This document shows positions 3,843 to 29,980 of a stretch of 32,000 nucleotides of DNA, one piece after another. Both the position numbers and the translations under genes were made by a program. The stretch comes from Nanobdellota archaeon (lineage in GTDB: Archaea > Nanobdellota > Nanobdellia > Nanobdellales > Nanobdellaceae): NCBI GenBank assembly GCA_042850255.1, contig AP031373.1:450001-482000 (forward strand). Direction: 5' to 3'. Below the pieces are notes generated by a model. That model made no database searches. It worked only from the letters and a program-made list of their open reading frames with translations, and was not told the origin of the DNA. How positions within the stretch are numbered: the first letter of the stretch is position 1; every line of letters starts with the position of its first letter.

Positions 3843-4283
3843 ATGAGATTATGGTCTATACATCCTAAATATTTAGATACTAAAGGATTATTAGGGTTAT
3901 GGAGAGAATCTTTATTAGCACAAAAAGTATTATTAGGAGAAACTAAAGGTTATAAAAATCATCCTCAATTAATAAGATTTAAACAAACAAAGGATCCTTT
4001 ATTATATATTGGAACATATTTATATTATATCTATTTAGAGGGAGAAAGAAGGAATTATAAATTTGATAAAAGTAAGATAGTTAGGTATGATTTAAATATT
4101 GAAAAAATACCTGTTACAGATGGGCAAGTAAAATACGAATTTAACCATTTATTAAATAAGTTAAAAGAAAGAGATTATAATAAATATCAAGAAATAAAAG
4201 ATATTAAAAATATAGAAGTACATCCGGTATTTTATATAATCCCTGGAGATATAGAAAAATGGGAAAAAGTAAAGGATTTATAG
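3843..4283 (+). CDS. Pyrimidine dimer DNA glycosylase (endonuclease V-like, Pyr_excise family)
   Basis: 146 aa. The N-terminus MRLWSIHPKYLDTKGLLGLWRESLLAQKVLLGETKGYKNHPQLIRF is the characteristic signature of this family. Confidence 0.8.
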   Translation: MRLWSIHPKYLDTKGLLGLWRESLLAQKVLLGETKGYKNHPQLIRFKQTKDPLLYIGTYLYYIYLEGERRNYKFDKSKIVRYDLNIEKIPVTDGQVKYEFNHLLNKLKERDYNKYQEIKDIKNIEVHPVFYIIPGDIEKWEKVKDL

Positions 4284-6594: not shown

Positions 6595-6978
6595 ATGGAC
6601 TATTTCAAAGTTAATAATAAAGAAGAAATAATAAATAAAATTAAGGAAATATTATCAAAATATAATATTTCTTTTGCAATAATTTATGGATCTTTCGTTA
6701 GAAGAAAGTATTTTAGGGATATAGATATTGTAATAAAAGGAAATATAGATAAATATAAATTAGAGGAAGAATTAGAGAAATTAGGATATATATTTGATAT
6801 AAAATTATGGGAAGAATTAAATTTAAAATATAAATTTTTTGCAATAAAAGAAGGAATTTATATAATATTTAATGAAGAAGATTTTAAATGGGAAAAATAT
6901 AATACTGTAAGAGAATATTTAGATTTTCAACCAGTAATAGAAAGGTATTATAAACATTATATAAGTTTAATAAAATGA
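6595..6978 (+). CDS. Minimal nucleotidyltransferase (MNT), antitoxin partner of HEPN
   Basis: 127 aa. IIYGSFVRRKYFRDIDIVIKG contains the GS...DxD pol-beta NTase signature. A 4-nt ATGA overlap links it to the downstream HEPN gene. Confidence 0.85.
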   Translation: MDYFKVNNKEEIINKIKEILSKYNISFAIIYGSFVRRKYFRDIDIVIKGNIDKYKLEEELEKLGYIFDIKLWEELNLKYKFFAIKEGIYIIFNEEDFKWEKYNTVREYLDFQPVIERYYKHYISLIK

Positions 6979-7397
6979 AAGAACTAATAAAAGAACATAT
7001 TAAAGAACTAATTAAAGGTTTGAAACAATGGGAAAAATATGAAAAAATTGATAAAAATAAATTTTTATCAGATGAGGATACACAAAATATGGTAATGTAC
7101 GGAATGTTAAGAACAATACAATCTATGATAGATATAGGAAATGATATAATAGAAATTTTTAATTTTGAAGAACCTTCTACATATAAAGAAATATTCGAAA
7201 TATTGAAGAAACATAATATAATTGATGAAGAATTATCAGAAGAATTAAAAAAATTAGCAGGATTTAGAAATGTATTAGTACATATTTATTATGATATAGA
7301 TTTAAATAAGGTTTATGAAGTTTTAATATCTGGAAGAAATAATATAGAAAAGTTTTTAAGAATTGTTTTAGACTTAACAGAGAAATATAATATATGA
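6975..7397 (+). CDS. HEPN domain protein (DUF86 family), toxin of the MNT/HEPN pair
   Basis: 140 aa and helical. LAGFRNVLVHIYYDID carries the Rx4-6H motif (RNxLVH) typical of DUF86. Confidence 0.85.
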   Translation: MKELIKEHIKELIKGLKQWEKYEKIDKNKFLSDEDTQNMVMYGMLRTIQSMIDIGNDIIEIFNFEEPSTYKEIFEILKKHNIIDEELSEELKKLAGFRNVLVHIYYDIDLNKVYEVLISGRNNIEKFLRIVLDLTEKYNI

Positions 7398-7427
7398 TTT
7401 AAAAGATCTTTAGAATTCTTATAATAT

Positions 7428-8357
7428 ATGCCAATACCTAATGATTATAGAGAAAAATTATTGGAAAGATTAAATAAAAGTAGATTAACGGTAAGCGATT
7501 TAAATTATATAATTAAAAACTTCTTTAGGGAGAGATTAGATAATATTTTAAATTATGGTAAAGAATATAAATTAAGAAGCTATAATTTTTACTGTGTTAA
7601 TATGTATTATGATGAAGGAAGATTTTCTATATATAAAGAAGATAAAGTAGATTATATAAGTACTATTGGTATTATGATTTATATAAATAAAAGAAATCTT
7701 ATCAATATAATAACTTCTGAATTATTTATAAGATACCTATTAGAAGGAAAAATAGGATTATCTATAATAAAATATGATGGAAAATATAATATTACTATTG
7801 TAATACCTACAATTTATGGAGAGAAAAATATAAAATCAGGACCATATATATTGATGAATTTATTTAGAGATAAATTATTAAATATATATTCTTCGGATTT
7901 ATATTTATTTGGAAATAAATTAAAAATTGTTCAAGATGAAGAAATATATGGTAGAATATATATTAAACCTGCAAGATATCCAGAGGATTCTTCAAAATTA
8001 GATGAAATAGATATGAAAATGTTTAGAGCAGATAATATATCTTTAAGAACATATAATGGAGAAGAAAGATATAATGTAATTTTGTCTACATATAAAGGTA
8101 TTGTAAAATTAATGGAGAGATATGATTATGAAGAATATGATTTTTATCAAGGAATAAGAAATGAAACATCTATTATAATATCTAGTGTTAAAATAAGAAA
8201 TATGCCAGAATTTGTATTAGTTGATAAGGTATATAAAGAAGGAGAAAAATATATTGTAGAAGCTTATAGAGGAAATAGAGAATTAATAAAAATAAATAAA
8301 AAAGATTTTTGCTATCATCCATTAGCAGGATTGTATGGAATTAATTATTGCAAATAA
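7428..8357 (+). CDS. Hypothetical protein (309 aa), apparent paralogue of the 12761-13732 and 13755-14759 products
   Basis: Long ORF 30 nt after HEPN. Shared blocks seen by eye: IGIMIYINKRNLINIIT vs NNYGIVFYINSKRLLEKLL, and GRIYIKPARY vs GVSIRPAAYY. Confidence 0.6.
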   Translation: MPIPNDYREKLLERLNKSRLTVSDLNYIIKNFFRERLDNILNYGKEYKLRSYNFYCVNMYYDEGRFSIYKEDKVDYISTIGIMIYINKRNLINIITSELFIRYLLEGKIGLSIIKYDGKYNITIVIPTIYGEKNIKSGPYILMNLFRDKLLNIYSSDLYLFGNKLKIVQDEEIYGRIYIKPARYPEDSSKLDEIDMKMFRADNISLRTYNGEERYNVILSTYKGIVKLMERYDYEEYDFYQGIRNETSIIISSVKIRNMPEFVLVDKVYKEGEKYIVEAYRGNRELIKINKKDFCYHPLAGLYGINYCK

Positions 8358-9165: not shown

Positions 9166-9675
9166 CTATAAATATTTGAAATCAGAAATCTTTATTATTT
9201 CTCCATCTATCATATTAGATTCAACATATTTATCTATATAATCTTTTACTATAAATTTTGAGGATACAGAATACGCGCCTGTAAATATCCCGGCTGTCCC
9301 ATTTAAAATAAATGTAGATTTATAAGATTTATATCCTAAAAATTCTACTATTAACTTTTCGTTCTTTGCATTTATTTTTAATGTTTTATAAAGTAAAAAT
9401 GATCCTAAAAATGGGTAAATATTATTTCCATCTAAATATATTTCAAATTCTTTTAAACTTGATTTATTAATTAATGCTGATAAAAATATAGAAATATATG
9501 TAAATAAGGAATATGGATCGTATCTATATGTTAAATTTATATTCTTATTATAAAATTCCGGTAAGTAGTCAATTATACTTTGTATTAGTTTATTGTCTAT
9601 TCTTATTTTATTAAGTTCTCGATTATTATTTATATATTCAGAAAATATACTATAATAAGTATCTGCTATTGACAT
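9166..9675 (-). CDS. Hypothetical protein (169 aa) with weak resemblance to the central/GXGXG part of the 10911-11831 product
   Basis: LSALINKSSLKEFEIYLDGNNIYPFL vs ISSLINKLGYTQLVLQGSPFIPSL. LNGTAGIFTGAYSVSSKFIV resembles one GXGXG-type turn. It sits 1 nt from the downstream gene. Confidence 0.5.
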   Translation of the reverse strand: MSIADTYYSIFSEYINNNRELNKIRIDNKLIQSIIDYLPEFYNKNINLTYRYDPYSLFTYISIFLSALINKSSLKEFEIYLDGNNIYPFLGSFLLYKTLKINAKNEKLIVEFLGYKSYKSTFILNGTAGIFTGAYSVSSKFIVKDYIDKYVESNMIDGEIIKISDFKYL

Positions 9676-10020: not shown

Positions 10021-10890
<870 letters not shown>

Positions 10891-10910: not shown

Positions 10911-11831
10911 TCATTTACCATATTTTTTACCATTTACTATTATTTCTCCTCCATATATATTTTTTAAACTACCTTCATCTACATTCCCATCAACTATAAT
11001 TTTTCCACCATATATATCATTTAAACTATTTTTTCCAATATTTCCTTTTACATATACTTTTCCACCTCCAATAGCATTAAAACACTCTTTTCCAGTATTA
11101 CCTATAAGTGTAACTGATCCTCCTTTCATATTCATAAATCCGTAATCTTTTATATCTCCATAAAATACTAAAATTCCCCCTTCTATTTCTAATCCTATAT
11201 AATTATCTCCATCTCCTTTATGAATTAATACACCTCCTCTTAGTCCATATCCATAACCAGGTCCTGCATATCCATAAGTTTCTACTTTCCTTCCCTTTTC
11301 AATTAGTGAAGGAATAAATGGGGAACCTTGTAGAACTAGTTGAGTATATCCTAATTTATTTATCAATGACGAAATTGAGACTCCTAGACTAACATGTATA
11401 GGATTTACACCATAATATAAAGATATATTTCTTAAAATTTCTATAGAATCTTTGCTTATATCTTCTACTTTTTCATCATAATTAGAATAAAAAATATTTA
11501 TTTTTGGTAATATATTTAATTCGAAATAATTAAAGAAATCTGATGAATTATTAGTATTTTTATATTCTATTAAATATCCTGGATATTCGGATTTTTTTAC
11601 TTTTTCATTTATTCTATCTATAATTATCTGTACTAATTTCTGATTTAAACTAATGTTTTTATTTTTTATATATTCAAATAACTTTGTACTTTGATATTCG
11701 AATAAAGATTTTAAGAAATATTTTATTGAATATGATATACCTTCTATATTTTCTGGCTGTTTATAATCTTTATAAAAAGACACCGAATTTTTATTAATAA
11801 AATATAATAGTTCATCTATATTATCCTCCAT
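10911..11831 (-). CDS. GXGXG-motif beta-helix protein (GltB domain-3 / FwdC-like C-terminal half) with an uncharacterised N-terminal half
   Basis: 306 aa. The C-terminal ~120 aa are repeated glycine turns: GGVLIHKGDGDNYIGLEIEGGILVFYGD..MKGGSVTLIGNTGKECFNAIGGGKVYVKGNIGKNSLNDIYGGKIIVDGNVDEGSLKNIYGGEIIVNG. Confidence 0.65.
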   Translation of the reverse strand: MEDNIDELLYFINKNSVSFYKDYKQPENIEGISYSIKYFLKSLFEYQSTKLFEYIKNKNISLNQKLVQIIIDRINEKVKKSEYPGYLIEYKNTNNSSDFFNYFELNILPKINIFYSNYDEKVEDISKDSIEILRNISLYYGVNPIHVSLGVSISSLINKLGYTQLVLQGSPFIPSLIEKGRKVETYGYAGPGYGYGLRGGVLIHKGDGDNYIGLEIEGGILVFYGDIKDYGFMNMKGGSVTLIGNTGKECFNAIGGGKVYVKGNIGKNSLNDIYGGKIIVDGNVDEGSLKNIYGGEIIVNGKKYGK

Positions 11832-12095: not shown

Positions 12096-12539
12096 TTATA
12101 AAAACTTAATGCCAAAATTTTCAAATTTTTTATTCATTCCATTTTTATCTCCAGTTATTATAATAGGATGATATATATCGTTTATTTTGTACAATATAAC
12201 ATAAGTAGAAAAGTTTGATTCGTTTTTAAGATAATTATGGATATTTTTTGTTTGATTTAATCTATATATGTTTATATTATTTATATCTTTATCTTCTAAA
12301 TCCTTTATTTCTATTTCTTGCGAACTATAATTATTAAAAATATATTCTAAATCTTGAGGAAATAAATAAGATATAATTAAAACTAGAGAATCCTCAAGAA
12401 CTTCTAATTTATTATTTTCATATTTAACTAAACTTCCCTTTCCAAGAGTTAAATATATACTGCTATATCCTAAAGAAGATATATCTTTTATTATTTTATC
12501 CAGATTATTTTTATTAGTTTGATATAATAATCTAGACAA
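12096..12539 (-). CDS. Hypothetical ORF (147 aa, TTG start in track), probably the 3' part of a ~206-aa gene split at an A6 run
   Basis: The frame stays open upstream to the A-run at 12599-12604 and has no ATG start. See the partner ORF at 12563-12715. Confidence 0.45.
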   Translation of the reverse strand: MSRLLYQTNKNNLDKIIKDISSLGYSSIYLTLGKGSLVKYENNKLEVLEDSLVLIISYLFPQDLEYIFNNYSSQEIEIKDLEDKDINNINIYRLNQTKNIHNYLKNESNFSTYVILYKINDIYHPIIITGDKNGMNKKFENFGIKFL

Positions 12540-12562: not shown

Positions 12563-12715
12563 CTATATTATATGTAGAATAATCATTGTTTTCTTTAATT
12601 TTTTAATATTAGATATTCCTAGAAAAGTTAATTGTTTTTTTCTTATATTTTCAAATATTTCATACTCTAAATCTTTATCTGAATCGAAGAATCCTGTCCA
12701 TATGCCACCACCCAT
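12563..12715 (-). CDS. 50-aa ORF (MGGGIWTGFFDSDKDLEYEIFENIRKKQLTFLGISNIKKLKK..), probable 5' part of the split gene
   Basis: My own translation, with ATG at 12713-12715. Adding a single A to the A6 run would read ..GISNIKKIKENNDYSTYNIVFVNDYNILSRLLYQ.. straight into ORF 12096-12539. Confidence 0.35.
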   Translation of the reverse strand: MGGGIWTGFFDSDKDLEYEIFENIRKKQLTFLGISNIKKLKKTMIILHII

Positions 12716-12760: not shown

Positions 12761-13732
12761 CTATTTAGATTTCTTAGGTTTTCTTTCAATGAATGCTAAA
12801 TAATTATTACTTACATTTTTTAATCCCCCATATTTTATATAAGGTTCTATTGGTATTAAAAATTCTGTTACTCTTCTACTCTTTTTATATGCTGCTAAAA
12901 TAAATGCTGGAGTATATATAACATGTCCATTAATTTCAATTTTATAACTAACCATTAATAAATAATGACCAAATTCTAAACCTCTCTCTAAAACATAAAA
13001 GCTATTTTCTGAAATATCACATAGAGTATCTTTAGATATTGCAAAAACTCTAATGTAATAAAAATTGTTCCTATATCTGTTATCGATTCTGCTATTATTT
13101 TTAAGAGTATCCTCTATATAGGCAAAAATATTTTTATCATCTTTAAAATTATGAACATGGTGTTTATATACTAAATTTGGATTTAATACAACAGGATTAT
13201 TTAGATAATAATAAGCAGCAGGTCTTATTGATACTCCATCTGCTATTTGTAGATTATTTACTTCAATTCCTTTAATATTATATCCTATATGAGATTCTTC
13301 TTCAGGTAATTTATATAATTTTGTATATTTTCCTAAATATTTTCTAAATTCTGCAGGAGAATATGTACTATAATGTATATACACTTTTGCTAATGCAGAA
13401 TTATTATCTTTATCTCTTATAAGATCTACTGATATTTTTTCATCTAATATAAGTTTAGAAAATTTTGAATCTTCTAATAATTTTTCTAATAATCTTTTTG
13501 AATTTATATAAAAAACTATACCATAATTATTTAGCATACTTTCAAGTGAAGATTTGGATATTAATCTCAATATATAAGATTCAGAATTATCATAAGAATT
13601 TGAATATACATTATATTGAATTTCAATATCATATTTTTTCATATTTTTTACAAAGTTATCATTTACTTTCTTTTCTGGATCTTCATAAAAATTCATTAAA
13701 GCATTTTGTATTTTCTTATATAAATTATTCAT
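12761..13732 (-). CDS. Hypothetical protein (323 aa), large paralogue B of the operon
   Basis: Long ORF 22 nt downstream of the previous gene. It shares blocks with 13755-14759 and 7428-8357. No catalytic motif recognised. Confidence 0.65.
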   Translation of the reverse strand: MNNLYKKIQNALMNFYEDPEKKVNDNFVKNMKKYDIEIQYNVYSNSYDNSESYILRLISKSSLESMLNNYGIVFYINSKRLLEKLLEDSKFSKLILDEKISVDLIRDKDNNSALAKVYIHYSTYSPAEFRKYLGKYTKLYKLPEEESHIGYNIKGIEVNNLQIADGVSIRPAAYYYLNNPVVLNPNLVYKHHVHNFKDDKNIFAYIEDTLKNNSRIDNRYRNNFYYIRVFAISKDTLCDISENSFYVLERGLEFGHYLLMVSYKIEINGHVIYTPAFILAAYKKSRRVTEFLIPIEPYIKYGGLKNVSNNYLAFIERKPKKSK

Positions 13733-13754
13733 TTAATATAATTTTAATTTAAAT

Positions 13755-14759
13755 TTATAAAATACTATACCACTTATCTGTAAATATTTCTATCGGATTA
13801 CCTACTATATCTGATTTATCTATTTCTATTTCTAATCTTTTACATACTGGAGCTAAAACTTTTATATTTAAAAACTTGTTATTTATTATCTCTGCATTTT
13901 TTATTATTGCAGGTAATTTATATTTTTCATTTATACAATTTATATCATCTATTTTATTGGTAAGATCTACGTATGTAATTAATATTTCTTTTATTTTATC
14001 ATTTAAATTATAATATCCATAATTTTTTCTTACTATATCATATAATCCTTTTGATGAAACTCCTAAAACTCTTTTTTCATATTTTCCATAAATACTACTA
14101 TTATATATTTTTTCTATTTCTTCATCTAATTTTTTAAATTCGTATTTTTCAGATTCTATATTTTCTTTATCTAATAATGGAGAAAATATAGAATGTATAC
14201 CTTCTGATAATTTTATAAAACTCATATCCGATATATTATTTACATTTACTTTTTCTTCATTTATTTTTCTTTCCTTAATATATTTTTTTAATGGTAAAAT
14301 AGTAGATTCTGGGGTATAAACTCTATTTTTTTCATAATCATAAATATATGGAGCTAATATAATTATATTTCCCTTAATAGTATTATTTTTATATATGTCT
14401 ATATCTATTTTTAAACCATTTATACCATTTATTATTCTATAAGCCATATATACAGTTGGGTATCCTATTATGAAATCTTTTAATTGATTATAATTTCCTA
14501 TTATTTTAAATCCATAATTATTTTCTACATCTTTTCTAAAACTATCAGAAATTATATATAATTCTACATGTTTTATATTATTGGATAAGTCATTATCTAC
14601 TTTTATGTTAAAAATTATATTAGAATTATCATTTCCTGGAATTTCATAATATAGTTCCTCATTATCTTTTATATCATCATATTTTATATTATAAATGATA
14701 TTCAAAATTTCTTTTATAGATCCTTCTAAATTATTTTTATCTATTATATTATCAAACAT
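13755..14759 (-). CDS. Hypothetical protein (334 aa), large paralogue A of the operon
   Basis: Long ORF. NNYGFKIIGNYNQLKDFII vs NNYGIVFYINSKRLLEKLL, and NVNNIS vs EVNNLQ, in the neighbouring gene. Confidence 0.65.
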   Translation of the reverse strand: MFDNIIDKNNLEGSIKEILNIIYNIKYDDIKDNEELYYEIPGNDNSNIIFNIKVDNDLSNNIKHVELYIISDSFRKDVENNYGFKIIGNYNQLKDFIIGYPTVYMAYRIINGINGLKIDIDIYKNNTIKGNIIILAPYIYDYEKNRVYTPESTILPLKKYIKERKINEEKVNVNNISDMSFIKLSEGIHSIFSPLLDKENIESEKYEFKKLDEEIEKIYNSSIYGKYEKRVLGVSSKGLYDIVRKNYGYYNLNDKIKEILITYVDLTNKIDDINCINEKYKLPAIIKNAEIINNKFLNIKVLAPVCKRLEIEIDKSDIVGNPIEIFTDKWYSIL

Positions 14760-14805
14760 TATAATTAATATTTATATTAAATCTATTTAAACCTATTTTC
14801 ATAAA

Positions 14806-15255
14806 TTATAAGTAATATGATTTATCTTTGGATTCTGAATATAATTCATAGAGTATTTTATTTATTAATTCTTCATATTTTTTCAATAGATCTTTAAATT
14901 TATTATATAATTCCTCATATTCTTTTTCTTTATCTTGTAATAAATAAGAAAGTAAAAGATTAATATAATAATCATATTTTTGATTTAATTTTTTAATTTC
15001 ATTTGAATATTTATTTCCTTTACTACTTTTTCCCAATCTTACTAATTTAATAAATAATTTTTCACCTTCATATAATCTCTCTAACTTTTCACCTATCTCT
15101 TTTATTTTTTCTAAATTGTTTTCTTTTGTTAAATAATCTAGATATTCAAATATGCTATTAGAGTTTAAACCCCAATACATTAAATAAAAATACATTTTGT
15201 ATAAATTATTTTTTATCAAAAATTCCCTAATTTTTATTATATCTTTATAGTTCAT
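14806..15255 (-). CDS. Small helical hypothetical protein (149 aa), small paralogue B
   Basis: K/E/L/Y-rich with no His or Cys. Its start overlaps the stop of the upstream gene by 4 nt (15252-15255). Confidence 0.6.
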   Translation of the reverse strand: MNYKDIIKIREFLIKNNLYKMYFYLMYWGLNSNSIFEYLDYLTKENNLEKIKEIGEKLERLYEGEKLFIKLVRLGKSSKGNKYSNEIKKLNQKYDYYINLLLSYLLQDKEKEYEELYNKFKDLLKKYEELINKILYELYSESKDKSYYL

Positions 15256-15695
15256 GTACTTAATATTTCTTCTAACAATTCTCTAGCCTCTTTTCCTAAT
15301 TTTTTTATTTCATTAATCTTTTCATCAATATTTTCTTTATTATCTAATATATCGAAAATTATTTCAAGAAATCTTATATCTATTAGGATTGAAATATCTC
15401 TTAATTTATCTATTTTTTCTTTATTCAAATTTGTAGAATATAATTGATTTATTACGTTTATTATAAACTTATTTATTACTATTTCGTCAATAAAATTAAA
15501 AAATTTTTCAAATATTTCAGATTTTCCAGTTTCTTTTAAATATAATAACAAATCATCTATATCATTTTCAAATAAATTTGTGATATAAATTATTTTTTGA
15601 ATATCTTCTTTTTTAATTTCATAGTCCTTTATTTTATTTTTTAAGTATCCTCTAAATTTTCTAAATTCCCTTACATTAGCAAATCTAAAAACCAT
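15252..15695 (-). CDS. Small helical hypothetical protein (147 aa), small paralogue A, first gene of the operon
   Basis: VREFRKFRGYL and LLLYLKETGKSE match IREFLIKNNLY and LDYLTKENNLE in the next gene. It contains no histidine. Confidence 0.6.
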   Translation of the reverse strand: MVFRFANVREFRKFRGYLKNKIKDYEIKKEDIQKIIYITNLFENDIDDLLLYLKETGKSEIFEKFFNFIDEIVINKFIINVINQLYSTNLNKEKIDKLRDISILIDIRFLEIIFDILDNKENIDEKINEIKKLGKEARELLEEILST

Positions 15696-15790
15696 AAATT
15701 AATAATTAAAATATTAATAATATAAATTTTATTAGATTCAGGAAAAATGCAAAATAATAAATTATAAAAATTTATTGTAAAACTATTAGT

Positions 15791-17191
15791 ATGATATTAT
15801 TCATAATTACTTACATAATAAAATTTTTAATATTTTTTTATCCATTATTGTTCTATATTTATCATTTATTTTTATATAATGCCTCTAAAAGTTCTAAAGG
15901 TGAAAATGATACAGAAATAAAGGATTATCCATATTTATCAATAATTGTTCCTATAAAAGGAGAAAAAATAGAAATTATAAAAGATTTAATAGATAATATA
16001 TCAAAATTAAGATGGGATAAGGAAAAATTAGAAATAATTATAGTATCTGATGATAGCGAAGAATATTTTAATGAAATAAAAAGAAGTATAAAAATTCCAG
16101 ATAATTTAAAGGTTTATTTATATAGAAGGGAAGAAAAGTTGGGATATAAAAGTGGAGCTTTATTATATGGATATAGAAAATCAAGGGGAGATTTAATATT
16201 AACTATTGATGTAGATTCAAGATTACCTGAAGATTCTATTGTAAAATTATATTCTAAAATGGTAAAAAATAATTGTGATGTTATAACATTAAGATGGATT
16301 GGTTATTCTCAAAATAATAGATCTTCTATTGCTAAAGGATTAATAGTGTTAACATCATTTTTCAGTAAAATATTTTTTGAAGGTAAAGAAAAGGCAGGTT
16401 TATTAGTTCTACCTATTGGCAGTGGTACATTGTTTAAAAGAGAAGCTTTAGATGATGTAGGAGGATGGGATTATAAGTTAATTCAGGATGATCTAGAAAT
16501 TGGAACAAGATTAATATATAAAAATAAGAAAATATGCGCATCAGATATTCCTATATATGTTGAAGTACCGGATAATTTTTTCTCTTTTTATGTTCAGCAA
16601 ACTAGATGGTCTATGGGAACTGGGGAAGTTTTTAGAAATAGATTAAAATATATAATAAAATCTAAAATAAGTTTTTATAAAAAATTAGATTTAATATTCT
16701 ATTTATTTCAATATACGCCAATCCTTTTTATATTTATATCCTCTATATTACTAGTAATATTAATTCCTTTTATTAATTATGATCCATTAATGATTCATAT
16801 TCCTTTATTTATAATTATAATAATTCTTTATGGAATAATTGGTATTATATATATTAAAGGAATATATAAAATTGCTAAAGAATTGAATTTAGATATAATT
16901 GATATTTTATTCTCCTTAAGTAGAATTTCTGCATTTACATTATCAATATCTCCTTTTATATCTTATTATTTCTTAAAAGGATTAATAAGTAATAAAAAAG
17001 TATATATAGTTACTCCAAAAGGTGGAAATAAAATAAAAAATAGTTATAATATATTAATTATAGGAGTTTTTGGATTAATATTTTTAATTTCTTCTATAAT
17101 ATATTTTTTGCATCAATATTATTTTTCTTCTCTATGGTTATTTTACTATTCAATAAATTTTATATATACTAATATTACATTTAATAAATAG
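15791..17191 (+). CDS. Membrane-integrated family-2 glycosyltransferase, processive synthase type
   Basis: 466 aa. N-terminal TM segment, LSIIVPIKGE, IIVSDDS, TIDVDS (DxD) and QQTRWSMG (QxxRW), followed by 4-5 C-terminal TM segments. Confidence 0.85.
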   Translation: MILFIITYIIKFLIFFYPLLFYIYHLFLYNASKSSKGENDTEIKDYPYLSIIVPIKGEKIEIIKDLIDNISKLRWDKEKLEIIIVSDDSEEYFNEIKRSIKIPDNLKVYLYRREEKLGYKSGALLYGYRKSRGDLILTIDVDSRLPEDSIVKLYSKMVKNNCDVITLRWIGYSQNNRSSIAKGLIVLTSFFSKIFFEGKEKAGLLVLPIGSGTLFKREALDDVGGWDYKLIQDDLEIGTRLIYKNKKICASDIPIYVEVPDNFFSFYVQQTRWSMGTGEVFRNRLKYIIKSKISFYKKLDLIFYLFQYTPILFIFISSILLVILIPFINYDPLMIHIPLFIIIIILYGIIGIIYIKGIYKIAKELNLDIIDILFSLSRISAFTLSISPFISYYFLKGLISNKKVYIVTPKGGNKIKNSYNILIIGVFGLIFLISSIIYFLHQYYFSSLWLFYYSINFIYTNITFNK

Positions 17192-17640: not shown

Positions 17641-19266
17641 ATGTCTTTAATTTTTATTTCTGCTTTATTATTACTATTGGATATATTTATCTTATCTGTT
17701 TTCGATTTGAGGTATTTAATAAACTTTGATAGAAAATTAAAAATACCAAAATATAAAGATTTAGAAAGAAATATTACTCTATTTATATTATTTCCAGTAA
17801 AAAATGAAGAACAGGAAGTTTTAATTAAAAAAATAGAATATTTGGAAAAAATAGAAAATAAATATAATAAATTAAAATTATATTTTGCATTTATAGATGA
17901 TACAGATATAAATAAAGAAGAATTGATGATAAAATATTTAAGATCTAAAGGAGCTAAAGAGTATATAGAAGATAATTTTTATATATTTGATTTAGATAAA
18001 ATAAAATATTTATTTAGATTAAATGGGATAAAAAGAAAAGGGGCAGCTTTAGATGATACAATAGATTATTTAGTAAAAAAATATAATATAGAATATGTAT
18101 CAATATATGATTTTGAATGGACCATTAATGTAGATTATTTATATAAAGCTTTATGTATATTAGAATCAAATAAAGATTTATCTTTTGTATATTGGAATAG
18201 AAGAACAGTATCTGTAGATTATTTCCATAAAATAGTTGGTATCTATGTAGATACATTCTTTGAATTCTATTTACCAATGAAGAATTTATTAGATGATATT
18301 TCAATGGCTCATGGATCCTGTGGAATATTAAGGATAGAAGATTATAATAAAGTTGGGAAATTTACACCCCATCTTACAGAAGATGCTTCTTTAACTTTAA
18401 GATTATATTTAAATGGATATAGAGGATTATATATAAGGGATTGGGTAGAATATGGACAAAATTTACCACCTAATTTTAATATGACTTTAAAAACATTAAG
18501 AAGATGGCAATCTGGAACATTTGATGTTATTTTTTCTAATTTTTGGAAGATAATTAAGAATAAAAAATTAAATTTAAAGCAAAAAATAAGCTTTATTCAT
18601 ATGTTTTCATCAGTATTTTTACCAATAGTATCATTTATATTAATATCTATAAGTTTAATTATAATAATATTTAATATTTCATCATCATTATATCCTTATA
18701 TATCTATCTTCTTTTATTTTTCTCAAATTTATATTATTTCAATATTTATTTCAGAATATTATTTAGTGGAAAAAAGAATATATAGTAAAGGATATATAAA
18801 AGACGCATTTTTAACATTATTATTAGGTTGGGGAATTTCTGCTCTAACAATAATATATTATCTAAGAAGAATATTTTTAGGATTAGATAATAAATGGATA
18901 GTAACTAAAAAATTGATTAGAAGATATAATTATGATTTATATTCTATTATTGTTTTTTCCATATTTCTAATGATAAATCTATATTTTGTTTATTATTCTT
19001 GGAGTTCTTTAATTAAATATTTTAAATATATAGGTATATATCAGTTTTTGTTATCATTAATATTAGGAAATTTATCTACTTATATCTGGATTATTTCTTT
19101 GATATTTATATTTTACTTGCAGTATAGAAGTTATCATATGAAGGAAAGAGATTTGAATAATTTATTGTATCTAGGTATTTCTGATGGAGAATCTTATAAT
19201 AAAACAAAAATAATTATTAAAAATGATAGAGTGGGTAGAAATAAGGAATCATTATATGAAACCTGA
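17641..19266 (+). CDS. Second membrane GT2-like synthase with divergent catalytic motifs
   Basis: 541 aa. LFILFPVKNEEQEV, FIDDTD, IYDFEW in place of DxD, LTEDASLTL (TED-like) and LRRWQSGT (xRW), followed by multiple C-terminal TM segments. Confidence 0.75.
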   Translation: MSLIFISALLLLLDIFILSVFDLRYLINFDRKLKIPKYKDLERNITLFILFPVKNEEQEVLIKKIEYLEKIENKYNKLKLYFAFIDDTDINKEELMIKYLRSKGAKEYIEDNFYIFDLDKIKYLFRLNGIKRKGAALDDTIDYLVKKYNIEYVSIYDFEWTINVDYLYKALCILESNKDLSFVYWNRRTVSVDYFHKIVGIYVDTFFEFYLPMKNLLDDISMAHGSCGILRIEDYNKVGKFTPHLTEDASLTLRLYLNGYRGLYIRDWVEYGQNLPPNFNMTLKTLRRWQSGTFDVIFSNFWKIIKNKKLNLKQKISFIHMFSSVFLPIVSFILISISLIIIIFNISSSLYPYISIFFYFSQIYIISIFISEYYLVEKRIYSKGYIKDAFLTLLLGWGISALTIIYYLRRIFLGLDNKWIVTKKLIRRYNYDLYSIIVFSIFLMINLYFVYYSWSSLIKYFKYIGIYQFLLSLILGNLSTYIWIISLIFIFYLQYRSYHMKERDLNNLLYLGISDGESYNKTKIIIKNDRVGRNKESLYET

Positions 19267-20548
19267 TGTTATTAATGAAATAATAGATTATTCAAAAAAT
19301 AGGTGGATTGCATTAGAAACTTCTAGATTAGATCAAAGAATATTTATTAGATATGATAAAGATAAAAATCCTTTAAAAATAAATAACGAAGATGAATATA
19401 AATCTTTATTTGTTAAATTTTCATATTTAAAATTTAGAACAATATATGCTACAATAAATATATATAATAAAATAGAAATAAATAAATTAAAAGATTTGAA
19501 TAATATTAAATATGTAACTCCAATATTTGATATAGATGGGACATTAGAGGATTTTGAAATAATAAAAAATGTTGCAGAAATAATTGTTTCATATTTGGAA
19601 AAATATGGTATATATAAATCTATATATTTAAAATGGAGTGGAAGAGGGATTCATGTACATATAAATGAAAAAGCATTTTCAGAATCTTTAAAGAAATATC
19701 ATCCACTAGATATTGCATTTTCAATTGTAGATTTTATATTAAAAAAAGCAAAGGATGATTTGGAAAAAGAAATTTCTAAAGCTAAAGGTAAAAGCAGAGA
19801 ATTTAAAGTAGAAAATAAAATTGATATACAAAGGGTATTTACTGTACCTTTATCATTTCATAGATTTTTAGATTATATTTGTGTAGTATTTAAACCAAAT
19901 GATATACAAAATTTTGATTTATCTTGGGCAGATTATAAAAATTATAAACATGATAAAAGATGGAGAGAATTTGAATTAGGAGAAGGGGATTCTTTAGCAG
20001 AAATTGCAATGAAAGAAATAAAAGGTTATATATCAAATTATTTAAAAAGTAGTTCGATAAAAGTTTCTGAGAAAAAAGTTAATGTTGGAAATGTTGGAAG
20101 ATTTCAAGTAATGGGATTATTACAAGCAGCAAGATATTATTTATTATATGGAGATATAAATAAGGCAAAAAGTTTTGGATTAAATAGAGCGATATTTTAC
20201 GCATGGGCAAAATATTATAGGCCAATATATAAAAGAAGTAAGAAAAATATGTTTGGAATAAAAGAAGAAAATAAAGAAGAATTTATAAAAGTTGGGGGAG
20301 AAGAAGTTCCATATGATAAAAATACAGGATACTTTTATATAGGAGATAAAGATCAAACTCCAGAAGATTATGATAAAGAAATAAAAGATAAAATAGAAAG
20401 TATAATAAATTATGATATTGCCTGGAATTATGCATTAGAATATTTAAAGAAATTTTCTAAAGAGGTATTGGAAGATCCTCAATTATTTTATAAGAAGGTT
20501 TATGAACCTGTTAGAGATAAATTCTTTGAAGAAATATTAAAAAAATAA
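19256..20548 (+). CDS. priS: Archaeo-eukaryotic primase catalytic subunit (PriS) with a ~130-aa C-terminal helical extension
   Basis: PIFDIDG (DxD), KWSGRGIHVHI (SGxGxH) and RVFTVPLSFH. The track start is 19223. The ATG at 19256 (MKPDVINEI) is the shorter alternative. Either start overlaps the GT2 gene end (19266). Confidence 0.85.
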   Translation: MKPDVINEIIDYSKNRWIALETSRLDQRIFIRYDKDKNPLKINNEDEYKSLFVKFSYLKFRTIYATINIYNKIEINKLKDLNNIKYVTPIFDIDGTLEDFEIIKNVAEIIVSYLEKYGIYKSIYLKWSGRGIHVHINEKAFSESLKKYHPLDIAFSIVDFILKKAKDDLEKEISKAKGKSREFKVENKIDIQRVFTVPLSFHRFLDYICVVFKPNDIQNFDLSWADYKNYKHDKRWREFELGEGDSLAEIAMKEIKGYISNYLKSSSIKVSEKKVNVGNVGRFQVMGLLQAARYYLLYGDINKAKSFGLNRAIFYAWAKYYRPIYKRSKKNMFGIKEENKEEFIKVGGEEVPYDKNTGYFYIGDKDQTPEDYDKEIKDKIESIINYDIAWNYALEYLKKFSKEVLEDPQLFYKKVYEPVRDKFFEEILKK

Positions 20549-20552
20549 TTAT

Positions 20553-20795
20553 CTAAATATTTAATAACCATTTATATAAAGGAATAAATTTAATATTAAT
20601 ATTATCAACTATTTTATTATCTTCATAATCCCAAGTTATAATAATTAATTCTGGTTTATATTCTTTAAATAAATTATAAGATTTAATTAATGATCTAATC
20701 TCTCTTTTATCTATTTCATCAAAATTACTAACATATGTAACCTGTATTAATTGTTTTATATTATTTCCCTCTTTTATTAAAAAATCTACTTCATA
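20553..20795 (-). repeat. Copy 2 of the ATPase 3'-end repeat
   Basis: See copy 1. The offset between copies is about 19.5 kb, on the same strand. Confidence 0.7.
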
Positions 20796-21806
20796 TTTTT
20801 GGTAATCTTTATAATAGTATATTTCTAAATTTTTATTATAATAACTCTTTCTTCTAAATAATTCAATTGCTACAGTATTTTCCATTAACTTTCCTATATT
20901 ATCTGGTAATACTTTATATCCTAATGATGTATAAAAACCGGTATCAATTAAATAAATTTTCTTAGGAGATTTATTTATTTCTCTTAATTTAAAAGAGAAG
21001 TTGTTTAAAAATATAAATAAATACGATTCTTCTAAATAATTTAGATATTTTGATGCTGTATGATCACTACCTAAATTAAAATGTTTCTTTAAAGAATTAT
21101 ATGTTGTATAATTTGATATATTTGATAATAAGTAATATGTTATATCTTTAAATGTTTTTACAAATCTTATTTTATATCTAAATATAATATCTTTTTCTAT
21201 AATATGGTTAAATAGTTCTGATAAATAAATTACAGGGTCTTCTTTATCTACTACAACTTCTGGAAATCCTCCAAAATTTATATAATCCATTAATAATTTC
21301 TTTAATCTTTCATAATCTTCATATGTATTTATTTTAAAATCATTTGCTCTTAAAAATTCTCTAAAAGAAAATGGAAATAAATCAAAAGATATAGCTCTAC
21401 CTGTTAAATGTGTTGCAATTTCTTTTGATAATAATTTAGCATTAGAACCTGTTATATAAATATCATAACCTTGATTATATAATCTATTAACAAATATTTC
21501 CCAATTGTTTAAATTTTGTATTTCATCAAATAAAATAATTTTAAAATCCTTATATAATTCTAGTAAACCTTTATATATATCATCCGGATCGTATTTTAAT
21601 ATTCTATCATCATCAAAATTTACATATGCGAAATTTTTATCTTTTAAATAATTATATATAAAGAAAGATTTTCCAGATCTTCTAACTCCAGATATTACTT
21701 TTATTAATTTAGTATTTATTATTTTTAATTCTCTTTCAACATATTTTTTAGTACTTATAATTTTATCTATATAATACCTTTGTGCACCTAAAATATCTGT
21801 AATCAT
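20553..21806 (-). CDS. AAA+ ATPase, DUF4143 type, paralogue of 1044-2318
   Basis: Walker A GVRRSGKS, Walker B ILFDEIQ and YEVDFLIKEG. The C-terminal ~80 aa are about 75% identical to the other copy. The track ORF extends to 21851, but MITDILGAQRYY (ATG 21804-21806) aligns with the paralogue. Confidence 0.85.
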   Translation of the reverse strand: MITDILGAQRYYIDKIISTKKYVERELKIINTKLIKVISGVRRSGKSFFIYNYLKDKNFAYVNFDDDRILKYDPDDIYKGLLELYKDFKIILFDEIQNLNNWEIFVNRLYNQGYDIYITGSNAKLLSKEIATHLTGRAISFDLFPFSFREFLRANDFKINTYEDYERLKKLLMDYINFGGFPEVVVDKEDPVIYLSELFNHIIEKDIIFRYKIRFVKTFKDITYYLLSNISNYTTYNSLKKHFNLGSDHTASKYLNYLEESYLFIFLNNFSFKLREINKSPKKIYLIDTGFYTSLGYKVLPDNIGKLMENTVAIELFRRKSYYNKNLEIYYYKDYQKYEVDFLIKEGNNIKQLIQVTYVSNFDEIDKREIRSLIKSYNLFKEYKPELIIITWDYEDNKIVDNINIKFIPLYKWLLNI

Positions 21807-21816
21807 AATAAATATT

Positions 21817-21846
21817 AGTGCGAACTTTTTAATAAATTTTCGCACT
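21817..21846. promoter_or_regulatory. Perfect 8-bp inverted repeat AGTGCGAA-N14-TTCGCACT spanning the TATA-like tract upstream of the ATPase gene
   Basis: The half-sites lie at 21817-21824 and 21839-21846. The spacer is ctttttaataaatt. A third TGCGAA occurs at 21861-21866. The GC-containing palindrome is conspicuous in this AT-rich DNA. Confidence 0.45.
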
Positions 21847-22080
21847 AACAATGCAAATATTGCGAAATCTCTATCAAAGGTTTATAATTTATTAAATATA
21901 TCCTTCAAAAGTTTATGGTAACATATATGGACCGATCATTTATAAATACAAGGTCTACATACATGACCACTCTTATAAGGATTGTTTCTTTTGTGAAATT
22001 AAACTTAAAATATTAATAAACAGAATTAATAAGATTTTCTAAATTATTCATTTAAACATACTTTTCAATATTATTTTTAG

Positions 22081-23520
22081 ATGGTTCAAAAGGATATTTT
22101 AATAATAAATCCTAAGAGTAATATATCTGTTGCAACTTTATGGACACAAAAAGAAATAATTCTCAGTAAATTATCTGAAGATATTAAAAATAAAATTAAT
22201 GTAATTGGAACTTTATATACATTTCCAGGAGTTAATTATATATTAGAAACATTGGATCAAAATCCTCAAATAAATAGAATAATAGTTTATGGTTTAGATG
22301 CCTCATCATCTGGTCAGGCTTTAATAGAGATATTTAATAAGAAAGATGAAGAAACATTGAGAAAATATAATATACAATTTAAATTAAATGATATATTGGA
22401 TATATTAAATACAGTAGAAATTATTGATTTAAGAAAACAATTTTTAATAAATAAACTGAATAATCTAAATGAATTAGAAAAAGTTATAAATGAAAATTAT
22501 GATACAGGAAAAAAATATAGACAAACTAAAGGGTTAAAAGTTATAGAAAAAGTAGATGAAATAGAATCTTGGCCAGAAATTATAGCTCCGATAGTTATTT
22601 ATGAATCTTCAGTATTTAATGCATGGGTAAAAGTTATTGATAGCGTATTTAAATATGGGCAAATAGTAGAAACTGAATATAACGAAAAAAGTAAGCAGAT
22701 AATGAATGTTATAACTACTATTAAATTAAATGGAGAGGAATATAAAATAGAAAAAGAATTTTTTGATTTTATACCTGAAAAAGATTTTGAAGCACATATA
22801 AAAAGTTTAAATTTAAAAAGTTCGTCAAAAGAAGTCGGTGTTGAATATAATTATGGGGAAAGGTTGAGGAATTATCATGGAATAGATCAGGTAGAGAATA
22901 TGGTAAAAAGATTAATTAAAGATAAAAATACTAGAAGAGCCTTTTCAACACTCTGGGATCCTTCTGTTGATACCGATTCATCTTATCCACCTTGTATAAC
23001 TTCAGTTCAAGGATTAATACAAAATGATTATTATTATCATACCGTTTATATTAGAAGTAATGATATGTTTAGAGGGTGGCCTTTGAATATGGTTGGTCAA
23101 ATAAAATTGGCAGAGGAGATTGTAAAAAGATATAATGAAAGAACTGGAGAAAATATAAAATTAGGATATGTGACTACAATTTCTGTTGCTGCTCATATAT
23201 ATGAACATGATTTTAAGTATGCATTAGAATTATTAAATAAATATTCTTATAGGATATATAATTTTGTTCAAGATCTTAGAGGTAATTTTCTGATTTATAT
23301 AAAAGATAATAAAGTTTGCCTAGAACAGAAGACTCCCAATAATTTATATACTTATTTCTTAGAGTGTTATAATCTAAATGAAGAGAAAAAAGCATATAAT
23401 ACTTTGAAGAGATTTTCTTATAATTTATCTCCAGATCATGCTATGTATTTAGGTTGGGAACTAGCAAAGGCATTTGAATATTTAAGGACTGGAAAAGAAT
23501 TTAAACAGGATAAAGTTTAA
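22081..23520 (+). CDS. thyA: ThyA-type thymidylate synthase fused to a ~170-aa N-terminal MtrA/DUF4346-like domain
   Basis: The C-terminal part has RRAFSTLWDP, YPPCITSVQG (catalytic Cys), IRSNDMFRGWPLNM and AAHIYEHD. The N-terminal part has ISVATLWT...NVIGTLYTFPGVNYILETLDQNPQINRIIVYGLDASSSGQAL. Confidence 0.8.
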   Translation: MVQKDILIINPKSNISVATLWTQKEIILSKLSEDIKNKINVIGTLYTFPGVNYILETLDQNPQINRIIVYGLDASSSGQALIEIFNKKDEETLRKYNIQFKLNDILDILNTVEIIDLRKQFLINKLNNLNELEKVINENYDTGKKYRQTKGLKVIEKVDEIESWPEIIAPIVIYESSVFNAWVKVIDSVFKYGQIVETEYNEKSKQIMNVITTIKLNGEEYKIEKEFFDFIPEKDFEAHIKSLNLKSSSKEVGVEYNYGERLRNYHGIDQVENMVKRLIKDKNTRRAFSTLWDPSVDTDSSYPPCITSVQGLIQNDYYYHTVYIRSNDMFRGWPLNMVGQIKLAEEIVKRYNERTGENIKLGYVTTISVAAHIYEHDFKYALELLNKYSYRIYNFVQDLRGNFLIYIKDNKVCLEQKTPNNLYTYFLECYNLNEEKKAYNTLKRFSYNLSPDHAMYLGWELAKAFEYLRTGKEFKQDKV

Positions 23521-29422: not shown

Positions 29423-29980
29423 TTATGGACAAAAAATTAAGATATAGTGATTACTAAGATATGTTGGTCCTTCTAAAAGTTTAAATCCATATTTTTCAAA
29501 AAAAGATATTGTTTCTTCTGGTGATAATCTTATAGATATCGGAGGTCCAAATTCTGTATATTCTTTTTTAAATTCTACAACTCCTATTTTTCCATTATCT
29601 TTTAATATTCTTTTAATTTCTTTTAATAAACCTTCTTCTTTCTTTTCATGAACTATATCATGAAAAACATTTGCTAATAATACAAAATCAATTGATTTAT
29701 CTTCTAAAGGAACTTTATTAGTTATATCTGCTTGTATTGTTATTATATTATCAATATTCCTTTCTTTCTTTATTTTTTCTATATAATCTAGGAATTCTTT
29801 ATCTATATCTATTGCATATACCTTTCCTGGATAAATAATTCTTGCGATTGGTATTGCAAACCTTCCAGGTCCAGATCCTAAATCTGCTAAATTTATTCCT
29901 TTTTCTAATTTTAATGGTTTTAAGAATTCTTCTCCAATTTCCTCTCCTTTTAAATGTTTAAATTTGTGATTTCCAAACAT
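29423..29980 (-). CDS. Class I SAM-dependent methyltransferase
   Basis: 185 aa. LADLGSGPGRFAIPIA (motif I), YAIDID and LLANVFHD. Confidence 0.85.
   Translation of the reverse strand: MFGNHKFKHLKGEEIGEEFLKPLKLEKGINLADLGSGPGRFAIPIARIIYPGKVYAIDIDKEFLDYIEKIKKERNIDNIITIQADITNKVPLEDKSIDFVLLANVFHDIVHEKKEEGLLKEIKRILKDNGKIGVVEFKKEYTEFGPPISIRLSPEETISFFEKYGFKLLEGPTYLSNHYILIFCP

Follow-up and report, generated by a model that had tools for sequence, protein, structure and literature searches.

The window analysed here is a stretch of 32,000 nucleotides (nt) of the archaeal contig AP031373.1 (positions 450,001 to 482,000 of the forward strand; all coordinates below are counted from its first letter), and its subject is a minus-strand cluster of four genes running from 15695 to 12761, the products of which resemble no described protein family. 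The DNA stems from Nanobdellota archaeon YN1, 'Ca. Nanofervidus parviconus', whose genome is complete, with 773,326 bp and 889 coding sequences (CDSs); YN1 is an ectosymbiont of the host Sulfurisphaera ohwakuensis, and its closest cultured relative, Nanobdella aerobiophila, shares a 16S rRNA identity of only 86.5% (PMC11420986). The small proteins of the cluster are referred to as S1 and S2 and the large ones as LA and LB; they are identical to the 'hypothetical protein' entries YN1_5320, YN1_5310, YN1_5300 and YN1_5290, respectively. In the order of reading, the run and the open reading frames (ORFs) that follow it are laid out as listed, with protein lengths in amino acids (aa) and isoelectric points (pI).

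15696..15790, no strand: intergenic region of 95 nt, AT-rich, common to S1 and a divergent glycosyltransferase family 2 (GT2) synthase gene

15252..15695, minus strand: S1 (YN1_5320), 147 aa, pI 5.3 (acidic), first gene of the run

14806..15255, minus strand: S2 (YN1_5310), 149 aa, pI 8.9 (basic)

13755..14759, minus strand: LA (YN1_5300), 334 aa, pI 5.3 (acidic), mixed alpha/beta, soluble

12761..13732, minus strand: LB (YN1_5290), 323 aa, pI 9.2 (basic), mixed alpha/beta, soluble

12563..12715, minus strand: ORF of 50 aa, 45 nt downstream of LB

12096..12539, minus strand: ORF of 147 aa (YN1_5270) with a TTG start, 23 nt downstream of the 50-aa ORF, without family match

The four same-strand ORFs were found exactly where a preliminary description of this DNA had placed them, and its spacing was reproduced as well: the stop of S1 and the start of S2 overlap by 4 nt in an ATGA at 15252-15255, followed by gaps of 46 nt between S2 and LA and of 22 nt between LA and LB. 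The ATGA overlap reads as the usual signature of translational coupling. The minus-strand run goes on past 12761 through the 50-aa ORF and then the 147-aa ORF, and the likely transcription unit is therefore one of six genes; S1, S2, LA, LB, the 50-aa ORF and the 147-aa ORF probably form one predicted unit, with the 147-aa ORF probably as its last gene. From the gap in the locus-tag numbering, the 50-aa ORF is probably YN1_5280, and it was also called as a gene in an independent Logan assembly of the same culture. Reading of the 95-nt intergenic region by eye revealed, about 35 nt ahead of the start codon (ATG) of S1, a TTTATATT element, which is presumed to be an archaeal promoter, a feature that is not discriminating in DNA of about 85% AT.

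On this strand, stop codons are expected at about 9% per codon, and the chance of an open frame amounts to about 1e-14 for LA and LB and to less than 1e-6 for S1 and S2. The GC content at codon positions drops from position 1 to position 3 in the cluster genes, the same as in the genes for MetRS, the M1 peptidase and the primase. Because chance open frames are very improbable and the codon-position pattern is that of the conserved neighbours, the four ORFs are real genes. GC content is about 20% across the window and 17-20% in the cluster, in line with YN1, for which 23.4% genome-wide has been reported, compared with 32.6% for the host (PMC11420986). Given this difference from the host, and with LB having no homologue in any genome, recent transfer of the cluster from the host was considered unlikely.

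A further large ORF on the other strand, LC, was included in the analysis, since the preliminary description had counted it as a third large paralogue.

7428..8357, plus strand: LC (YN1_5210), 309 aa, pI 8.9 (basic), 31 nt behind an MNT/HEPN gene pair

Searches of Pfam, NCBIfam, PADLOC and PHROGs returned nothing above noise for S1, S2, LA, LB, LC and the 147-aa ORF, and sequence searches of the PDB with the first five were empty or at chance level. The best library result was a sub-threshold match of S2 to the Pfam model 4HB_MCP_1 (E = 0.0011; 19 bits, with a cutoff of 27). In PADLOC, four of the five proteins had no match even at E = 1, and S2 gave only a chance-level match to Cas9 (E = 0.12). 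No nuclease, ATPase, nucleotidyltransferase, TIR, Sir2 or protease signature was found for the cluster proteins in Pfam or NCBIfam, and readings as a PD-(D/E)xK nuclease, a P-loop protein or a RAMP protein were rejected by eye and by hidden Markov models (HMMs), with no conserved acidic/lysine triad, glycine-rich loops or matches.

The large protein collections were searched with LA (word-indexed search) and LB (word-indexed search and full HMMER scan). In the word-indexed search of 5.8 billion clusters, LA and LB each retrieved only themselves, and LB again retrieved only itself in the full HMMER (phmmer) scan of 1.84 billion representatives. S1, S2, LA, LB, LC and the 147-aa ORF are all singleton clusters named 'hypothetical protein'. 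The searched collection does hold close relatives of YN1, as evident from a primase cluster with 95 members named Ca. Nanopusillus or Nanobsidianus. LA and LB have no detectable relative in large public protein collections that hold the sister genera. The claim that the cluster belongs to no recognisable family was thus borne out in Pfam, NCBIfam, PADLOC, PHROGs and the PDB sequences, and it was strengthened by LA and LB finding only themselves.

The structural comparison suggested in the preliminary description was run on LA and LB as monomers, and it yielded poor models and no significant fold match. Single-sequence AlphaFold (AF2) models reached a predicted local distance difference test (pLDDT) value of 41.9 for LB, with residues 1-140 at 55-69, and of 37.3 for LA. 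With Foldseek, the best PDB match of the LA model was at E = 1.7; for the LB model, the best PDB match was eIF4E at E = 0.05, which is not significant, and the best BFVD match was at E = 0.017 with TM values of at most 0.17.

The only named match for any of the four cluster proteins in the PDB sequence searches was Csm2. Residues 37-74 of S1 (window 15474-15587) locally resemble the C-terminal helices of Thermococcus onnurineus Csm2, residues 141-178 ('SEIFEKFFNFIDEIV' versus 'KENFEKFYDFLQAVV', with 'FEKF..F' in common), at a non-significant E = 0.87 against the PDB (phmmer). The match is regarded as fortuitous, since no cas model is matched in either Pfam or PADLOC. It is, nonetheless, the top PDB sequence match of S1, and it bears on the reading of the cluster as an extremely diverged version of a known multi-subunit machine, for example a degenerate type III/I effector of Cas11/Csm2-like small and RAMP-like large subunits, or a replication accessory complex. 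Small all-alpha genes beside larger alpha/beta ones are indeed found in Cas11-type systems, where small subunits (Csm2/Cmr5) go with a Cas7/Cas5 backbone, and two small helical plus two approximately 330-aa alpha/beta proteins resemble such a small-subunit plus backbone-subunit layout. We regard this reading as most improbable. No Csm2, Cmr5 or Cse2 small-subunit model and no RAMP model matched at E ≤ 1 in Pfam or PADLOC, LA and LB are poor in glycine (14 and 10 residues, respectively), unlike RAMPs, and the window is without cas10, cas3 or a CRISPR-like array. For YN1 as a whole, no CRISPR-Cas has been reported, except for a solo cas4 (PMC11420986). Moreover, core machines would have homologues in the sister genera, and LB has none.

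To compare the region with that of relatives, the neighbouring primase gene at 19223-20548 was used as anchor, by which 35 metagenomic loci were recovered and about 10 kb on each side of the primase were examined. The primases of these loci are either about 80% identical to that of YN1 (Ca. Nanopusillus/Nanobsidianus by cluster names) or about 47% identical. When every window ORF was compared with the 35 loci by tblastn, conserved gene order was revealed only for 17.6-31.4 kb of the window, at 46-85% identity. This block comprises a 541-aa glycosyltransferase (GT), the primase, a ThyA-like gene, a 96-aa ORF, a rhomboid, the M1 peptidase, MetRS, Trm5/Tyw2 and a 152-aa ORF. From 1 to 17.6 kb, the window had no counterpart in the 35 loci, and a phmmer --max search of S1, S2, LA, LB and LC against their 1185 ORFs found nothing. 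Upstream of the primase, the relatives have other genes; their translations, judged by eye, look like housekeeping proteins (a class II aminoacyl-tRNA synthetase, methyltransferase-like proteins, a large helicase and a DHH-like protein). When the adjacent GT2 gene served as anchor of a contig search, the only loci recovered were bacterial glycosyltransferase loci of no relevance.

The cluster is located outside the block that keeps its gene order with the sister genera, and among the protein collections searched, LA and LB are absent from Nanopusillus/Nanobsidianus. Between these genomes, relatedness is still readily seen at an identity of 46%, and LB is therefore unlikely to be the product of a shared ancestral gene that has simply diverged fast. 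The location is compatible with the 'accessory stretch' of the preliminary description, which is not proven by a comparison reaching about 10 kb to each side of the relatives' primase. No linkage of small and large genes, proposed as a check in the preliminary description, was seen in other genomes, no homologue of LA or LB having been found.

The absence of this region from the relatives' primase neighbourhood would also fit the remnant of an integrated Nanobdellota virus or plasmid, of which the cluster would be a structural module. In the filamentous archaeal viruses of the Lipothrixviridae and Tristromaviridae, the major capsid proteins are paired and helical, and it is typical of these viruses to encode sequence orphans. 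S1 and S2 would resemble those capsid pairs in being helical, about 130-170 aa long and encoded side by side, a comparison that is drawn from the genes; likewise, orphan status is typical of archaeal virus genes, and the same stretch holds a T4 endonuclease V-type pyrimidine-dimer glycosylase gene. Neither a sequence match nor a PHROG match with a function was obtained for the cluster proteins, no other viral genes lie nearby, and tblastn against 50,697 phage and virus records gave nothing significant. Pattern scans of IMG/VR and JGI metagenomes (N-domain alignment, single proteins) were empty, as was the BFVD fold search. In the window, no integrase, tRNA, att-like repeats or capsid/packaging match was found, the only long direct repeats being two ATPase gene copies described below, and the codon-position GC of the cluster equals that of core genes. 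A viral or plasmid origin of the cluster is thus quite unlikely.

What had drawn attention to the cluster was its apparent construction from two paralogue pairs, S1/S2 and LA/LB, with LC as a further large member. In BLASTP, the S1-S2 comparison gave E = 0.76, LA-LB gave E = 0.047 with the alignment out of register (LA 51-162 versus LB 213-300), LB-LC gave E = 0.016 over 36 residues and LA-LC gave E = 2.4. Smith-Waterman scores set against 200 shuffles corresponded to z = 2.25 for S1-S2 and to z = 2.3, 2.1 and -0.4 for the large-protein pairs, while pairs of unrelated proteins from the window, used as controls in the same test, come to z = 3.2-3.9. With phmmer --max within the 39-ORF window, only LC found LB (E = 0.013), the reciprocal match was not found, and there was no mutual match of S1 and S2. 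HMMs built from any two of the large proteins never recovered the third in leave-one-out tests. Pairwise profile alignment with hhalign, named beforehand as the test on which paralogy would fail, was non-significant, with probabilities of at most 1.5% and of 0.5% for S1/S2.

The view of S1 and S2 as diverged duplicates is consequently not upheld, with BLASTP, shuffles, phmmer and hhalign all at background; apart from being helical and of equal size, the two proteins show no link. For LA and LB, the sequence blocks quoted in support of their pairing do exist, but no test lifts them above background, and where I, N, K, Y and E make up most of the alphabet, shared blocks of this kind are what the eye picks out by chance. 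As for LC, only the faint signal from LC to LB (E = 0.013-0.016) speaks for a third large paralogue, and the leave-one-out HMMs speak against it; its similarity to LB is faint, and its membership in one family is unproven.

Comparison of the large proteins by halves gave somewhat higher values. The N-terminal halves of LA-LB and of LB-LC aligned in register at z = 3.1-3.5, and the N-terminal half of LA against the C-terminal half of LB gave z = 5.15, a score that none of 500 shuffles attained. This last value prompted the idea of an internal duplication, with a 'strand-S/K-helix-NYG-strand' module occurring twice per large protein, which was rejected because the profile-profile probability of N-half versus C-half was 0.1% and the motif leave-one-out HMMs failed. 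The AF2 models of LA and LB, which were made independently and are both of low confidence (pLDDT 37-42), show a similar succession of elements over the first 140-165 residues: helix, beta-hairpin, short helix, strand, long helix, beta-hairpin, helix. A shared ancestry of the N-terminal domains is possible and unproven.

Analysis of composition revealed S1 to be free of His, Pro, Cys and Trp, and S2 to be free of His, Pro and Cys. The preliminary description had concluded from the lack of histidine that neither can be an active Rx4-6H HEPN domain; the count is zero in both proteins, and this conclusion therefore stands. Helix-type hydrophobic periodicity was present in 79-86% of the sequence windows of S1 and S2, compared with 84% for the neighbouring all-alpha HEPN protein. 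Hydropathy also confirmed that S1, S2, LA, LB and LC have no predicted transmembrane segment (maximum KD19 < 1.4). Each size class has one acidic and one basic partner, at pI 5.3 and 8.9 for S1 and S2 and at 5.3 and 9.2 for LA and LB. No invariant Asp, Glu, His, Cys or Ser was present in the three-way alignments, the invariant columns of which are nearly all N, K, I or Y.

Taking these results together, we tentatively read the cluster as a lineage-restricted orphan cluster of YN1, whose soluble, probably non-enzymatic products would assemble as a hetero-oligomer, held partly by charge; this is our preferred interpretation, at a confidence short of even. Coupling of the S2 start to the S1 stop would favour equimolar synthesis, and the opposite pI values within the size classes may lead to S1-S2 and LA-LB heterodimers, or to a 2+2 particle, held together partly by charge. 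The products would be non-enzymatic, with a structural or adaptor role, which is favoured over catalysis because the three-way alignments are without invariant Asp, Glu, His, Cys or Ser. With less assurance, we infer from the restricted distribution and from the neighbouring genes (a HepT/MntA pair and the copies of an AAA_14 ATPase gene) that such a complex would act in an accessory role, in conflict with mobile elements or in interaction with the host, not in core physiology.

Several points weigh against this interpretation. The argument for protein interaction, which comes from opposite pI values in two pairs, is weak, and so is the term 'non-enzymatic', which is drawn from what was not seen in sequences that are highly divergent and biased in composition. 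The LA and LB models (pLDDT 37 and 42) are too poor to exclude a known fold. Non-synteny was seen only around the relatives' primase (±10 kb), the large protein databases were searched only with LA and LB, and the transcription unit is predicted from sequence. Orphan clusters are common in DPANN genomes, and fast-evolving symbiont genomes hold many orphan genes. As in the orphan clusters of DPANN archaea and Nanobdellota, the genes are rich in AT and evolve fast, the hypothetical products have no homologues and the symbiont genome is reduced; nothing sets the cluster clearly apart from that background except its tidy layout, with a coupled small pair and two large genes of like size, and the acid/base pairing.

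Among the structures to which a hetero-oligomer of this kind might contribute, the cell biology of YN1 offers two. A large cone-shaped attachment organelle and bundles of 6.6-nm cytoplasmic and intercellular filaments have been described for this archaeon in a paper that names none of their component proteins (PMC11420986); the locus tags of the cluster have no entry in the supplementary material of that paper (PMC11420986). The cluster proteins could be building blocks of such a YN1-specific cytoplasmic structure, either the 6.6-nm filaments or a gate at the base of the attachment organelle. A lineage-specific structure needs lineage-specific proteins, and the products have paired sizes and complementary charge and are without predicted transmembrane segments; the cluster is also divergent from a membrane GT2 synthase gene cluster. 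All of this is purely circumstantial, with no repeat or coiled-coil polymer signature demonstrated, and since a good share of 889 CDSs would, by our expectation for DPANN archaea, be orphans, a prior of only a few percent would apply. The assignment to one of these structures is accordingly rated as very unlikely.

The preferred interpretation, a lineage-restricted orphan cluster with an accessory role, draws in part on the genes around it. The cluster's stretch also holds a HepT/MntA pair, the T4 endonuclease V-type glycosylase gene, a pirin gene of elevated GC content and several further ORFs without assignment. The MNT/HEPN genes at 6595-7397 matched Polbeta (PF18765, E = 1.1e-9) and HepT-like (PF01934, E = 4.5e-29), and the pair contains an RNVLVH (Rx4H) motif and a 4-nt overlap at 6975-6978, by which it reads as a bona fide HepT/MntA toxin-antitoxin pair. 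The observation that LC follows a pair of small helical proteins is therefore correct as far as the pair and the position of LC, 31 nt behind it, are concerned; the word 'helical' does not fit MNT, which is a nucleotidyltransferase of the alpha/beta type.

The arrangement at 6595-8357 is similar to that at 13755-15695, each consisting of two adjacent genes of 127-149 aa with a 4-nt overlap, followed by an ORF of about 310-330 aa, and S1 and S2 are helical, as is HEPN. In other respects the cluster differs from such a type VII toxin-antitoxin pair. S1 and S2 had no HEPN or MNT match in Pfam and NCBIfam at E ≤ 1, whereas the true HepT neighbour was found in the same run; they have neither an Rx4-6H motif nor, as judged by eye, a GSx(n)DxD nucleotidyltransferase motif, and against the window's own HEPN protein they scored at background (z = 1.0 and 0.06).

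An undescribed defence system or toxin-antitoxin-like conflict system, in which the small helical pair would be the sensor or regulator and the large proteins the effectors in a variable island beside HepT/MntA, is nevertheless suggested by the lineage-restricted position of the cluster outside the syntenic block, by the HepT/MntA pair 4.4 kb away and by the two AAA_14/DUF4143 ATPase copies that bracket the region. We judge such a system to be unlikely, as four of the five proteins drew no PADLOC match even at E = 1, none of the enzyme signatures sought in Pfam and NCBIfam was present, and invariant residues of catalytic type are missing; moreover, one toxin-antitoxin pair, 4 kb off and on the opposite strand, says little in favour of a defence island. 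That the cluster would encode a complex of new fold specific to the YN1 lineage, such as filament subunits or subunits of the gate of the cone that bridges YN1 to its Sulfurisphaera host, or a defence or conflict system unrelated to any described, is a proposition to which we give little credence.

The AAA_14/DUF4143 ATPase genes at 1044-2414 and 20553-21851, both on the minus strand, are paralogous direct repeats 19.5 kb apart that bracket the stretch with the cluster. Their DNA is 73-93% identical in segments, and they are the window's only long direct repeats. The second copy is situated between the primase and the ThyA-like gene, a position that in relatives is taken by a peroxiredoxin and a GT gene, by a GT fragment or by no gene. 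The 541-aa GT2-like membrane protein (17641-19266, plus strand) is encoded upstream of the primase in YN1 and downstream of it in Nanopusillus/Nanobsidianus contigs, as seen when three loci, L021, L012 and L006, were compared; its gene is reduced to a fragment of 120 aa in L012 and missing from L006. Judging by these gene orders, the primase-ThyA junction is a rearrangement hotspot in this clade.

The anchor gene itself (YN1_5360, plus strand) is annotated as 'hypothetical protein' and had no Pfam match at E ≤ 0.001. It shows the archaeo-eukaryotic primase motifs IFDIDG and SGRGIHVHI. At 90% identity it shares a cluster with a Logan protein of 430 aa that is nearly the same, and its metagenomic relatives of approximately 80% identity belong to the cluster 'Eukaryotic-type DNA primase' of Ca. 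Nanobsidianus stetteri. The last 44 nt of the upstream GT gene overlap with the start of this gene. Further along, in the product of the gene at 22081-23520 (plus strand), a thymidylate-synthase-like domain is joined to PterinBD-DUF4346. Its identity to the relatives' orthologue is only about 46%, compared with 67-81% for the flanking genes, and by this measure it is evolving unusually fast for a core enzyme. A class I S-adenosylmethionine (SAM) methyltransferase gene at 29423-29980 (minus strand) is absent from the MetRS-Trm5 interval of three compared loci (L006, L008 and L012) and constitutes a further YN1-specific insertion.

Adjacent to the cluster, the divergent gene at 15791-17191 (plus strand), separated from S1 by the 95-nt spacer, encodes a multi-pass membrane GT2 enzyme with a QQTRW (QxxRW) motif. 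The QxxRW motif is typical of processive polysaccharide synthases. This gene had no counterpart in the relatives' 35 loci. The glycosylase gene at 3843-4283 (plus strand; PF03013, E = 1.5e-21) is an unusual repair gene to find in a nanoarchaeal genome of reduced size, and horizontal acquisition may account for it. The pirin gene at 10021-10890 (plus strand) has a GC content of about 28%, compared with 17-21% around it, and a GC of 0.44 at codon position 1, which suggests either a more recent acquisition or strong constraint. Downstream of the cluster and on the same strand, the minus-strand genes at 10911-11831 and 9166-9675 gave sub-threshold matches to GXGXG/FwdC-like beta-helix models (NCBIfam E = 1e-13 and 2e-4, respectively); a role related to formylmethanofuran dehydrogenase seems unlikely for their products because YN1 is without most metabolic pathways.

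With regard to the meaning of the cluster for YN1, the feature that had set it apart, the duplicated pairs, is not supported. 'New' signifies here only that no relation to a known family is detectable; neither a functional system nor a new kind of system is thereby shown. If the proteins do form a real complex, they would constitute a family for which no relative has been described, from one of the small number of DPANN archaea in culture. YN1 builds a unique cell-to-cell bridge from protein parts that have not been named, and well-defined orphan clusters such as this one would be natural candidates for them.

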